Program-made: the position numbers and the translations under genes
Notes under the pieces: model-generated
Database searches by the model: none
Told to the model about the DNA's origin: nothing
Seen by the model: only the letters and a program-made list of their open reading frames with translations
Sequence record: MK962750
DNA: 64,000 nt
From: Shigella phage CM8
Direction: 5' to 3' (one strand)
Shown here: positions 7,067 through 9,100 of the stretch, piece after piece
Layout: each line of letters begins with the position of its first letter
Numbering within the stretch: position 1 is the stretch's first letter

Positions 7067-7127
7067 TTTATTCTCCTCAGTAGCTGATAGGGTAATAGTA
7101 TCACTACTAAAACCCAATGTAAACAAT
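7067..7127 (-). promoter_or_regulatory. promoter-in-hairpin element (early-promoter-like, PeSL-type)
   Basis: Minus strand reads GTTTACA - 17 nt - TGaTACTAT with flanking inverted repeat; shares the core gatagggtaatagtatcactactaaaacccaatgtaaaca with six other copies. Confidence 0.6.
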
Positions 7128-7352
7128 TTATTCAACGCCAGCGGCTTTCAAAAGTTTCTTAAGATTGGCAACACCTTGAGCAGAAAATGTGACCTTGCCA
7201 CCTTTTTCACTGATAGAACCAACCAATTTAGCAAGTTTATCATTAGGAATTTTTTTAAAATCAGCCAATGTTCCATCAAAGGTTTTTGAAACAAAAGGCA
7301 GTTCGTCTTCGCGTCTTTTAGCTTCTACAATAAATTCTTGATATGTTTTCAT
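7128..7352 (-). CDS. internal protein-like small protein (74 aa) with capsid targeting sequence
   Basis: Starts MKTYQEFIVEA (capsid targeting sequence consensus) from the second ATG, which has GGAAA-N5 upstream; promoter-in-hairpin element upstream. Confidence 0.65.
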   Translation of the reverse strand: MKTYQEFIVEAKRREDELPFVSKTFDGTLADFKKIPNDKLAKLVGSISEKGGKVTFSAQGVANLKKLLKAAGVE

Positions 7353-7436
7353 TTTAGTTTCCATTTGAGTGTTTGTTTTGATAGGGTAATAGTATCACTA
7401 CTAAAACCCAATGTAAACAACTTTGTGAAAAATTTA
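7353..7436 (-). promoter_or_regulatory. promoter-in-hairpin element upstream of the 74-aa internal-protein-like gene
   Basis: Same repeated core plus ctttgtgaaa; -35 GTTTACA, 17-nt spacer, extended -10 TGaTACTAT on the minus strand. Confidence 0.6.
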
Positions 7437-7724
7437 TTACAAAAGATTTTTAGCAATAATCTTGAGATGTGCCGCAGAAATGTGTTTAGCTTTAAACAAC
7501 GCAGTTTCTTCAGCAGGAGAGATAACGATTGTAGCACCATCCTTTTTAGCAGACCACCCATCGCCTAGGTAAACAGTACCTTTGATTTCTTCGCCATCAA
7601 CCAGACTAATCATTGGTTTACCTTCTCGTCCTTTATTTGCTTTAATAACTTCAGAAGTAAGAGTAGCTTCGGTAATAGTAGAAACCGGGGTAGTTGTAGA
7701 AGTAAATTCTTTGAAAGTTTTCAT
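7437..7724 (-). CDS. ipI: internal protein I-like (95 aa), copy 1
   Basis: [19 protein letters not shown]|ATL...: cleavage after the 19-aa targeting sequence at I-T-E would leave 76 aa, matching the recalled size of mature IPI*; sits next to 57B as in T4. Confidence 0.6.
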   Translation of the reverse strand: MKTFKEFTSTTTPVSTITEATLTSEVIKANKGREGKPMISLVDGEEIKGTVYLGDGWSAKKDGATIVISPAEETALFKAKHISAAHLKIIAKNLL

Positions 7725-7796
7725 TTTATTTTCCTAATTAATTTTGATAGGGTAATAGTATCACAACTAAAACCCTATGTAAACAACTTTGTGAAA
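7725..7796 (-). promoter_or_regulatory. promoter-in-hairpin element upstream of ipI-like copy 1
   Basis: Inverted repeat atagggt / accctat bracketing the spacer and -10; then AGGAAA-N5-ATG. Confidence 0.6.
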
Positions 7797-8054
7797 TTAT
7801 TTTAAATCTTCTAATCGTTTCTTCATCTTAGAACCGTTCTTAGCGATTTCGCCTGCATCAGAGCATAATGCTAAAAGCGCTTTAACTTTAGTTTGGTCTC
7901 CTTTAAAAGATGAAGGATCAACAGCAGCAGCAAGTTCTTTAATACGAGAGAAAAGACGCTCAGCTTCAGCTAAAGCCATTCCAAGCTTTACTTCCATACC
8001 GCGGGAAGATTCAGTAATAGTAGTTTTTGTAGCAAACTCTTTGAAAGTTTTCAT
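7797..8054 (-). CDS. internal protein-like small protein (85 aa) with capsid targeting sequence, copy 1
   Basis: MKTFKEFATKTTITE... with I-T-E and L-A-E sites; preceded by a promoter-in-hairpin element. Confidence 0.6.
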   Translation of the reverse strand: MKTFKEFATKTTITESSRGMEVKLGMALAEAERLFSRIKELAAAVDPSSFKGDQTKVKALLALCSDAGEIAKNGSKMKKRLEDLK

Positions 8055-8126
8055 TTTATTTTCCTAATTAATTTTGATGAGGTAATAGTATCACTACCTC
8101 ATCAGTATGTAAACAACTTTGTGAAA
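8055..8126 (-). promoter_or_regulatory. promoter-in-hairpin element, variant with 9-bp stem
   Basis: gatgaggta ... tacctcatc perfect inverted repeat around the -10; same -35 core. Confidence 0.6.
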
Positions 8127-8339
8127 TTATTTTAAATCGTCTGCCCAATCAACTTTAAGAGGTTCTTTATATTCACGATCTAATACGACCGGAATTTGTA
8201 CATCACCGCTAAATGATAAGGGCCCAACATTATAAGACAATGTTATATGCGGTGTGTAATCATCAAAATCGTGTGTAGCACCTAGTGCCCGCGCATACAT
8301 ATGTCGACAGCGCAGATATTCAGAATCTAGCACAAGTAC
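8127..8339 (-). pseudogene. truncated duplicate of the 3' part of gene 57B
   Basis: Identical to the last 70 codons of 57B ([20 protein letters not shown]...DWADDLK); homology stops at the duplication junction 8339/8340; no native start. Confidence 0.7.
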
Positions 8340-8410
8340 TGAGTGTTTGTTTTGATAGGGTAATAGTATCACTACTAAAACCCAATGTAAACAACTTTGT
8401 GAAAAATTTA
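8340..8410 (-). promoter_or_regulatory. promoter-in-hairpin element (copy of 7353..7436 type)
   Basis: Lies at the duplication junction. Confidence 0.55.
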
Positions 8411-8698
8411 TTACAATAGTATTCTATCATTAATCTTAAAATGTGCCGCAGAAATGTGTTTAGCTTTAAACAACGCAGTTTCTTCAGCAGGAGAGATAAC
8501 GATTGTAGCACCATCCTTTTTAGCAGACCACCCATCGCCTAGGTAAACAGTACCTTTGATTTCTTCGCCATCAACCAGACTAATCATTGGTTTACCTTCT
8601 CGTCCTTTATTTGCTTTAATAACTTCAGAAGTAAGAGTAGCTTCGGTAATAGTAGAAACCGGGGTAGTTGTAGAAGTAAATTCTTTGAAAGTTTTCAT
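8411..8698 (-). CDS. ipI: internal protein I-like (95 aa), copy 2
   Basis: Identical to 7437..7724 except the C-terminus ([12 protein letters not shown] versus AAHLKIIAKNLL). Confidence 0.6.
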
Positions 8699-8770
8699 TT
8701 TATTTTCCTAATTAATTTTGATAGGGTAATAGTATCACAACTAAAACCCTATGTAAACAACTTTGTGAAA
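8699..8770 (-). promoter_or_regulatory. promoter-in-hairpin element upstream of ipI-like copy 2
   Basis: Identical to 7725..7796. Confidence 0.6.
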
Positions 8771-9028
8771 TTATTTTAAATCTTCTAATCGTTTCTTCAT
8801 CTTAGAACCGTTCTTAGCGATTTCGCCTGCATCAGAGCATAATGCTAAAAGCGCTTTAACTTTAGTTTGGTCTCCTTTAAAAGATGAAGGATCAACAGCA
8901 GCAGCAAGTTCTTTAATACGAGAGAAAAGACGCTCAGCTTCAGCTAAAGCCATTCCAAGCTTTACTTCCATACCGCGGGAAGATTCAGTAATAGTAGTTT
9001 TTGTAGCAAACTCTTTGAAAGTTTTCAT
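8771..9028 (-). CDS. internal protein-like small protein (85 aa), copy 2
   Basis: Protein identical to 7797..8054. Confidence 0.6.
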   Translation of the reverse strand: MKTFKEFATKTTITESSRGMEVKLGMALAEAERLFSRIKELAAAVDPSSFKGDQTKVKALLALCSDAGEIAKNGSKMKKRLEDLK

Positions 9029-9100
9029 TTTATTTTCCTAATTAATTTTGATGAGGTAATAGTATCACTACCTCATCAGTATGTAAACAACTTTGTGAAA
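9029..9100 (-). promoter_or_regulatory. promoter-in-hairpin element, 9-bp stem variant, copy 2
   Basis: Identical to 8055..8126. Confidence 0.6.

Follow-up and report, generated by a model that had tools for sequence, protein, structure and literature searches.

The internal-protein (ip) locus of a T4-like phage was identified on the minus strand (9559-6881) of a 64,000-nt stretch of DNA from Shigella phage CM8 (sequence record MK962750); the whole stretch is referred to below as the window. In minus-strand order the locus consists of acb1/57B, ip5, ipI, a block made up of a 57B fragment with a second ip5 and a second ipI, and finally ip8 and tRNA.4. The gaps between these genes hold seven copies of a 45-nt element in which a promoter is combined with an inverted repeat. 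The copies are very probably the early-promoter/stem-loop elements of the T-even ip locus, that is, cassette boundaries resembling the promoter-early-stem-loop (PeSL) elements of T4-type phages. The original prediction, made from the letters of the window alone, had presented them as a candidate finding, but the elements are already published and annotated and the feature is not new. Their detection is a rediscovery of a T-even feature for which a driving role in the shuffling of injected anti-restriction proteins was put forward three decades ago. Added here are a cross-lineage test, in which the hairpin arms covary and the 5' (spacer) arm adapts to a conserved 3' promoter segment, the negative result that a tandem repeat in the CM8 record was not made by the elements, and the caution that this repeat may be an assembly artefact.

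Count and promoter anatomy of the elements

The minus strand was searched with the promoter pattern GTTTACA-N14-TGNTACTAT. Seven exact matches were obtained in the ip locus (9088-9059, 8758-8729, 8392-8363, 8114-8085, 7784-7755, 7418-7389 and 7124-7095) and an eighth at 2328-2299. The chance expectation for the pattern was 0.25, and none of 100 shuffled sequences gave 10 matches at two or fewer mismatches. A repeat search returned a single 45-nt family with seven copies of 78-100% identity between 7085 and 9093, and the predicted seven copies of about 45 bp were thereby recovered by both routes. The elements and the additional promoter are as follows.

9049-9093, minus strand: E1, between 57B and ip5; -35 box TTTACA at 9087-9082, -10 box TACTAT at 9064-9059, arms at 9077-9069 and 9058-9050, predicted transcription start at about 9052
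8719-8763, minus strand: E2, between ip5 and ipI; arms ATAGGGT/ACCCTAT (promoter pattern, repeat family, fold)
8353-8397, minus strand: E3, after ipI copy A; faces a gene fragment, with the join of the tandem repeat 13 nt further on (pattern, repeat family, alignment)
8075-8119, minus strand: E4, identical to E1 (pattern, repeat family)
7745-7789, minus strand: E5, identical to E2 (pattern, repeat family)
7379-7423, minus strand: E6, between ipI and ip8; identical to E3 (pattern, repeat family, alignment)
7085-7129, minus strand: E7, between ip8 and tRNA.4; core the same as in E6 (pattern, repeat family; UFV-AREG1 has the same TTGGGT variant behind ip8)
2299-2328, minus strand: plain T4-type early promoter upstream of e.8; shares the upstream part TTTCACAAA..GTTTACA (T4 equivalent at 70674)

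All seven copies carry TTTACA, a 17-nt spacer, TACTAT and a TG extension (GTTTACA-N17-TGATACTAT), which bears out the predicted T4-early-type sigma70 promoter with an extended -10 box. The promoter features of PeSLs are all present, namely sigma70-type boxes, a spacing of about 17 nt and an A/T-rich upstream tract, which appears as AAATAATTTCACAAAGTT in the alignment. From 5' to 3', each element runs from the stop codon of the upstream gene through the A/T-rich tract (TAATTTCACAAAGTT), GTTTACA, the spacer and the extended -10 box to a conserved TAC(C/T)(C/T)(C/T)ATCAA, and is followed by a gene-specific leader with the ribosome-binding site and by a gene that opens with MKT(F/Y)(K/Q)EF. In the alignment, the conserved stretch begins at the upstream stop codon, includes the -10 box and ends with ...ATCAA. 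The same 45-120 nt, made up of the element and the coding sequence of the leader peptide, return every 300-370 nt and are found in many co-infecting T-even phages.

The pairs E1 and E4, E2 and E5, and E3 and E6 are identical because a 974-bp tandem repeat holds three extra copies, so that the seven elements represent four independent positions and three sequence types. An element had been expected in front of every small gene; this holds apart from E3, which precedes the 57B fragment. A further related copy had been placed near 2330-2390. The site in question is the plain early promoter at 2299-2328, which lacks a hairpin (-2 to -3.4 kcal/mol, z +0.9).

Correspondence with described elements

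The identity of the elements is apparent from direct sequence comparison with published ones. The core of E1 (57B>ip5) is identical to the T4 57B>ipI element, a query spanning E7 (7078-7135) matches the RB15 ip-locus deposit Z35082 (1994) with 98% identity over 51 nt, and E2 is identical to elements of T4-like contigs in IMG/VR. Record OL960580 carries two overlapping annotations, 'T4 early promoter' and a predicted 'rho-independent terminator', at both homologous intergenic sites. All seven CM8 copies also fit the PST/T4 promoter consensus TTTACW-N17-TAYWAT given by Comeau 2014 (PMC4122927). No Rfam matches were obtained in the interval 6800-9600.

According to Arbiol 2010 (PMC2839356), 'PeSL-like sequences' were seen at T-even IP loci by Repoila 1994. 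As summarized in PMC2839356 and PMC4122927, the IP-locus elements of that study (Repoila, Tetart, Bouet & Krisch 1994, EMBO J 13:4181) share with those of CM8 the locus, the genes and the element sequences as well as the proposed role in the shuffling of ip cassettes. On the basis of these summaries there is no difference in kind; CM8 has its own ip5-ipI-ip8 combination and an apparent 974-bp tandem repeat. The predicted match to PeSLs is supported by Arbiol 2010 (PMC2839356), where the T-even IP elements are classed as analogs, not homologs, of PeSLs, with T4 early promoters and weaker, AT-rich stems. The commonest PeSL layout in that study has the stem in the interval from the -35 box to the -10 box or over the -10 box.

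Like the CM8 elements, the PeSLs of RB49/phi1 (PMC2839356), PST/T4 and nt-1/KVP40 (PMC4122927) are tied to the breakpoints of indels and replacements. The stem of the CM8 elements spans the spacer, the -10 box and +1, whereas stems are drawn upstream of the promoter in the PST figure (PMC4122927). The G-run/C-run stem of PeSLs (GGGG...CCCC) and homology to RB49/phi1 are lacking; in CM8 the stem consists of GATGAGGTA/TACCTCATC or (A)GGGT/ACCC(T). Assays of promoter and terminator activity are confined to the RB49/phi1 PeSLs, whereas the CM8 elements are known from consensus scans and folding.

Folding of the hairpins and covariation of their arms

As in PeSLs, a stem-loop accompanies each promoter, and the seven RNA folds range from -11.7 to -17.4 kcal/mol. 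The strongest is that of E1 and E4, in which the arms GATGAGGTA/TACCTCATC form a 13-bp RNA stem (-17.4 kcal/mol, z -4.0), and E2 and E5 fold at -12.6 to -14 kcal/mol. The predicted inverted repeat was found as described in these four copies. It is weaker in E3, E6 and E7, which read ATTGGGT and in which the pairing is limited to GGGT/ACCC and an inner TAGTA/TACTA stem.

Selection on the pairing was analyzed in 37 unique elements located downstream of 57B in 30 sources, including RB69-like and more distant lineages. A loose promoter pattern had returned mostly unrelated contigs from IMG/VR, and a locus search anchored on 57B was used instead. For most of the 37 elements the fold energy lies between -10 and -18 kcal/mol, and the arm pairs, which differ by lineage, take up three registers: GATGAGGTA/TACCTCATC, GATAGGGTA/TACCCTATC, AGGTCTAT/ATAGACCT, AGGGCTAT/ATAGCCCT and AGGGTTAT/ATAACCCT. 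G.U intermediates are present as well (GATGGGGTA with either 3' arm). Elements with their own arms had a mean energy of -12.1 kcal/mol, compared with -8.1 kcal/mol when the 3' halves were exchanged across arm classes, and none of 2000 permutations reached the observed value. Within a subset sharing one register, 94% of cells are paired versus 31-74% with the register slid, and two pairs change on both sides via G.U intermediates. As to whether the hairpin acts as RNA or as DNA, the sense RNA folds better in 34 of the 37 elements and the G.U intermediates point the same way, but much of the RNA advantage is owed to the invariant inner stem derived from the promoter, and A.C mismatches occur in the ip9>ip7 chimeras.

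The hairpin is not a general property of T4-type early promoters. Fold energies of early promoters among T4-type phages form two groups, one at roughly -12 to -18 and the other at roughly 0 to -5 kcal/mol, and in the first 76 kb of T4 a hairpin of -10 kcal/mol or lower was found in only 4 of 21 early-promoter motifs, both promoters of the ipI locus among them. The 3' arm sequence TAYCYYATCAAAAC also occurs after the -10 box of T4-type early promoters in which a 5' partner is missing (-0.8 to -2.8 kcal/mol). Because it is present there without a partner, the 3' arm appears to be a conserved segment of the promoter or initial transcript, and the 5' arm in the spacer the side that adapts.

Only two other early-promoter motifs with strong promoter-embedded hairpins lie outside the ip locus in the first 76 kb of T4 (T4T, HM137666). 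One is located at about 70337, upstream of e.7 (TAGGCTCAT/ATGAGCCTA, -16.8), and the other at about 7201, between motB.1 and motB (GGGACC/GGTCCC, -17.5).

Cassette boundaries in related phages

The ip loci of related phages were compared with respect to gene order. Seven architectures were examined, in which t4 stands for tRNA.4.

T4: 57B-ipI-t4
RB18: 57B-ip6-t4
PST: 57B-ip5-ip6-t4
RB14: 57B-ip5-ipI-t4
T4_ev240: 57B-ip5-ipI-ip8-t4
UFV-AREG1: 57B-ipI-ip9-ip7-ip8-t4
RB15: 57B-ip5-ip9-ip7-ip8-t4

Every switch of neighbours among these phages sits between a stop codon and the codons of the leader peptide. Across the seven architectures the edges of indels and replacements fall in or beside the elements, as they do for PeSLs; the join of CM8's own repeat departs from this. 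Such a check on relatives had been proposed with the original prediction, and the cassette boundaries were indeed located inside elements, with chimeric combinations of 5' and 3' arms. The half of the element upstream of the -10 box goes with the upstream gene, and the 3' arm and leader go with the downstream gene. At the ip5>ipI position, for example, T4_ev240 and RB14 combine a 5' arm of type b with a 3' arm of type a, whereas CM8 has a matched b/b pair. After 57B the arms are of type a in most phages and of type b in RB18 and L148, and ip8 and tRNA.4 are each found behind two different leaders. These differing combinations of halves point to crossovers in at least four constant patches: from the stop codon to the -35 box, in the -10 core, in ATCAA, and in the ribosome-binding site with the leader-peptide codons. 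Judged by these sequence comparisons, the relatives support a role of the elements in shuffling.

One element in L139 (4678-4760 of IMGVR_UViG_2706796299_000001), found also in L100, contains an internal 19-nt tandem duplication (GATACTATTACCTCATCAA repeated). Situated in the core formed by the -10 box and 3' arm, it looks like a scar of slippage or recombination.

Proposed role of the elements and alternative readings

From sigma70 geometry, transcription is predicted to start about 7 nt after the -10 box, within TAC(C/T)(C/T)(C/T)ATCAA, which puts the seven starts near 9052, 8722, 8356, 8078, 7748, 7382 and 7088. The 5' arm would be situated in the promoter spacer and the 3' arm at about -6 to +3. 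With the 3' arm in this position, the hairpin would be absent from the RNA of its own promoter, and its formation would be restricted to RNA that has read through from upstream and to single-stranded DNA. Most likely it would act as an attenuator or a 3'-end stabilizer where the upstream cassette ends. The promoter would then restart transcription and turn each ip gene into an autonomous early expression unit, wherever recombination puts the gene. The repeated elements also supply the T4 recombination system with patches of homology at which ip cassettes are swapped, deleted or inserted, as is seen directly in the relatives, where one upstream half is combined with various downstream halves.

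Several observations weigh against this reading. We infer the start sites, the termination and the stabilizing role from the sequence. A terminator scan called none of the seven elements, and the stem is followed by AAAAUUAAUU or AAAACAAAC without a U-run, which makes strong intrinsic termination doubtful. No late promoter (TATAAATA) was detected within 7000-9600; late supply of head proteins would therefore need upstream read-through across the hairpins, which again speaks against strong termination. The RNA folds of E3, E6 and E7, from -11.7 (37-nt core) to -15.2 kcal/mol with z -1.6 to -2.9, are only marginally better than those of shuffled sequences, and as DNA these elements (z about -1.8) are not clearly better than shuffles. 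The inner stem (TAGTG/TACTA) is promoter consensus and invariant, and a shuffle control on the alignment in a single register was marginal (31-65 of 500). Chimeric elements with poor stems persist, such as the ip5>ipI elements of T4_ev240 (-9.5 kcal/mol) and RB14 (-9.0 kcal/mol). The ip9>ip7 element of four phages (UFV-AREG1, L151; RB15, L152; L069; L139) folds at only about -7 kcal/mol with two or three A.C mismatches. It is a conserved chimera, with AATAG(G/A)GTA as 5' arm and TA(C/T)CTCATC as 3' arm, and the retention of so weak a chimera in four phages implies that the hairpin is not indispensable at every position.

Part of this evidence would equally be expected if the inverted repeat had no function, strong T4 early promoters having simply been copied along with their cassettes and the complementarity being incidental or inherited. 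The derivation of the inner stem from the promoter consensus, the occurrence of TAYCYYATCAAAAC behind the -10 box of many T4-type early promoters lacking a 5' partner, the weakly pairing chimeras of several phages and the DNA-level folds of E3, E6 and E7 all fit such an account. It is nevertheless considered improbable, as the arms vary by lineage yet remain complementary in three registers, no permutation of the swap test matched the observed energies and the fold energies of T4-type early promoters separate into two groups. Furthermore, a PeSL stem-loop of RB49/phi1 was reported to reduce downstream expression (Arbiol 2010, PMC2839356). A palindromic operator for a dimeric DNA-binding regulator overlapping the -10 box was also considered, given that the dyad symmetry is centred on the -10 region, a classic repressor position. 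This interpretation was rejected as very improbable: the sequence and position of the arms, the register and the loop size shift among elements and lineages while complementarity is kept, which fits a nucleic-acid structure, and no candidate regulator is known or was found. An early-promoter/stem-loop element with a cassette-boundary role therefore remains the favoured interpretation of the seven copies.

Genes of the ip locus

The closest relatives of the window are Tequatrovirus genomes with at most 98-99% identity, and T4_ev240 (LR597657) is the nearest record for the ip locus. Pfam and PHROG matches and the annotation of relatives were used to assign the genes.

9101-9559, minus strand: gene 57B, identified as acb1 (anti-CBASS nuclease), 152 residues (Pfam PF23474 Acb1, E 7.5e-60; named 57B in the annotation of T4, RB14 and PST)
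8771-9028, minus strand: ip5 (IpV) copy 1, 85 residues, leader MKTFKEF (phrog_3499 internal head protein, E 1e-48; one residue different from RB15 Ip5)
8411-8698, minus strand: ipI copy A, 95 residues, variant C-terminus (PF11634 IPI_T4, E 1e-49)
8127-8339, minus strand: 57B' fragment, 213 nt corresponding to the last 70 codons of acb1, without a start codon or ribosome-binding site of its own
7797-8054, minus strand: ip5 copy 2 (period-974 repeat)
7437-7724, minus strand: ipI copy B (protein identical to T4 IpI, the GmrSD inhibitor precursor)
7128-7352, minus strand: ip8, 74 residues, leader MKTYQEF (72 of 74 residues shared with RB15 Ip8, Z35082; phrog_8765)
6881-7066, minus strand: tRNA.4, 61-residue membrane protein (phrog_1692; annotation of relatives)

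These assignments place the elements between 57B and tRNA.4, the conserved upstream and downstream anchors of the ip locus, and in the gaps between ip genes, as described for T-even IP-locus elements. The genes ip5, ipI and ip8 match PHROG families of internal head or virion proteins. The small proteins encoded after the elements begin with a capsid-targeting N-terminal leader, which reads MKTFKEF in ip5 and ipI and MKTYQEF in ip8. Two elements depart from this: E7 is followed by tRNA.4 (MKRCE...), an order shared by all relatives, and E3 by the 57B fragment. An assignment of the 74-residue gene as ip6 was rejected in view of the 72 residues shared with RB15 Ip8, and a listed open reading frame of 78 residues from 7364 is ip8 begun at an upstream ATG. 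Elsewhere, 57B is often annotated as 'hypothetical' or 'RNA ligase'. Its match to Acb1 means that the ip cassettes lie directly downstream of another counter-defence gene and that the tandem repeat holds a truncated acb1 3' end.

The 974-bp tandem repeat

Self-comparison of the window at a period of 974 revealed two head-to-tail units.

8340-9313, unstranded: tandem repeat unit A, 974 bp
7366-8339, unstranded: tandem repeat unit B, 974 bp

The repeat lifts the number of elements from four to seven and was not made by recombination between elements. The original prediction had placed the elements exactly at the junction of the duplication and offered them as its cause. The join (8340|8339) reads ...AAACACTCA|GTACTTGTG... 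on the minus strand, or, in longer form, ...ATCAAAACAAACACTCA|GTACTTGTGCTAG..., with ...CAAACACTCAGTACTTGTGC... as the sequence spanning it. On its left side lies the leader that ordinarily continues into ip8, at a point 13 nt beyond the end of E3, and on its right side the middle of the 57B reading frame, 213 nt upstream of the 57B stop codon. No element or similar sequence was found at the 57B breakpoint, and 0 nt of microhomology are shared at the crossover, the sole similarity being ACTC at an offset of 1-2 nt. The CM8 breakpoint thus ignores the elements, which is the kind of outcome that the original prediction had itself named, for relatives, as contradicting it. The join was absent among 50,697 phage records, in which its two sides were separate pieces in 480 of 480 matching records, and was also absent from JGI metagenomes.

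One conceivable origin of the repeat is an unequal homologous exchange involving two elements, or a PeSL mini-circle that was excised and then re-inserted. In favour of this, the elements are abundant, near-identical and only 300-370 nt apart, one end of the repeat unit is close to E3, and PeSL-PeSL exchanges have been shown to yield circles (Arbiol 2010, PMC2839356). Units bounded by chimeric elements and free of a 57B fragment would be expected from element recombination, and mini-circle re-insertion was rejected on the same grounds, as it would give element-bounded units without the 213-nt fragment. The join instead lies outside the 45-nt repeat at a point where the parental sequences share no bases. 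With a 57B breakpoint that has no element and with a 57B fragment left behind, an exchange between elements is unsupported as the origin of the repeat and is given almost no probability.

An assembly artefact, in which case the phage has four elements, is regarded as slightly likelier than a real duplication. T4-type genomes are circularly permuted, and overlap assembly of short reads can produce a contig whose two ends share sequence. Rotating such a contig to the standard T4 start with the overlap left untrimmed would leave an exact head-to-tail repeat whose blunt join falls at an arbitrary point. The window is in standard T4 gene order and orientation, which fits a rotated contig, and the break coincides with the part of the region that is richest in repeats, a setting in which assemblers are prone to halt. 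The CM8 genome (167,247 bp) was assembled with MIRA 4.0.2 from 2x250 Illumina reads (PMC6832132), and the 974-nt repeat exceeds the read length. The two units are identical save for one patch 77-101 nt from the join, the would-be end of the contig, and the absence of the join from the databases searched is in line with an artefact. The blunt join also differs from real T4 amplifications, which are joined at 6-10 bp of microhomology (PMC9391042). These amplifications (Wu et al. 1991; Srikant, Guegler & Laub 2022, PMC9391042) resemble the CM8 repeat in that a short segment with counter-defence genes and a promoter is repeated head to tail; they often comprise many copies and are compensated by deletions, whereas CM8 has two copies and a blunt join without shared bases. 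That T4-type phages do amplify counter-defence genes in tandem (PMC9391042), and that the ip locus is a counter-defence island, nonetheless argues for a genuine event. So does the patch itself: the 76 nucleotides that separate it from the join match perfectly and the frame stays open, unlike what is expected of decay at the end of a read.

The variant copy of ipI

The two 974-bp units differ only by eight substitutions within 24 nt, the other 950 of the 974 nt being identical.

8417-8441, minus strand: 8-substitution patch in ipI copy A (counterpart in copy B at 7443-7467)

The patch alters the C-terminus of IpI (AHLKIIAKNLL) by five amino-acid changes and one silent change; ipI copy B has the C-terminus of the T4 form. 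The copy A protein is a singleton among 41 IpI clusters, occurring in Shigella phage CM8 only, and exact-protein look-ups of contigs returned nothing outside CM8. The patch was not found in the 50,697 phage records, IMG/VR or JGI metagenomes, and no donor sequence for it exists elsewhere in the window. It is the sole unusual item of the locus and is unexplained. A less favoured possibility, to which we attach a rather low probability, is that the duplication is real and that a second, diverging copy of anti-restriction IpI is present in the counter-defence island formed by acb1 and the ip genes, each copy on its own promoter element. Each Ip blocks only one GmrSD variant (PMC12373910). If real, the two copies would show, as in a snapshot, an inhibitor of GmrSD type IV restriction enzymes that was duplicated and then shifted its specificity.

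Other features of the window

Six tRNA genes (Arg, Met, Thr, Ser, Gly and Leu) are arrayed at 3723-4976 on the minus strand, and an open reading frame of 216 residues (4156-4806) interrupts the array between tRNA-Ser and tRNA-Gly. In relatives, a segD-like homing endonuclease is annotated somewhere in the matched 3400-7360 interval. Another open reading frame, of 157 residues (2497-2970, minus strand), matches phrog_2280, a family without assigned function, and is flanked by two identical 30-nt GC-rich terminator hairpins (CTTAGCCCCGACCGAAAGGTTGGGGCTTTTT) at about 3046-3016 and 2491-2461. The late-promoter motif TATAAATA lies at 3007-3014. The N-terminus of the encoded protein, MKSYTQFLNEA, is similar to the capsid-targeting leader MKTYQEFIAEA. 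The gene has the look of an inserted cassette, situated between the region of stable RNAs and the e.8 promoter, with edges formed by the duplicated terminator and not by the promoter-hairpin element.

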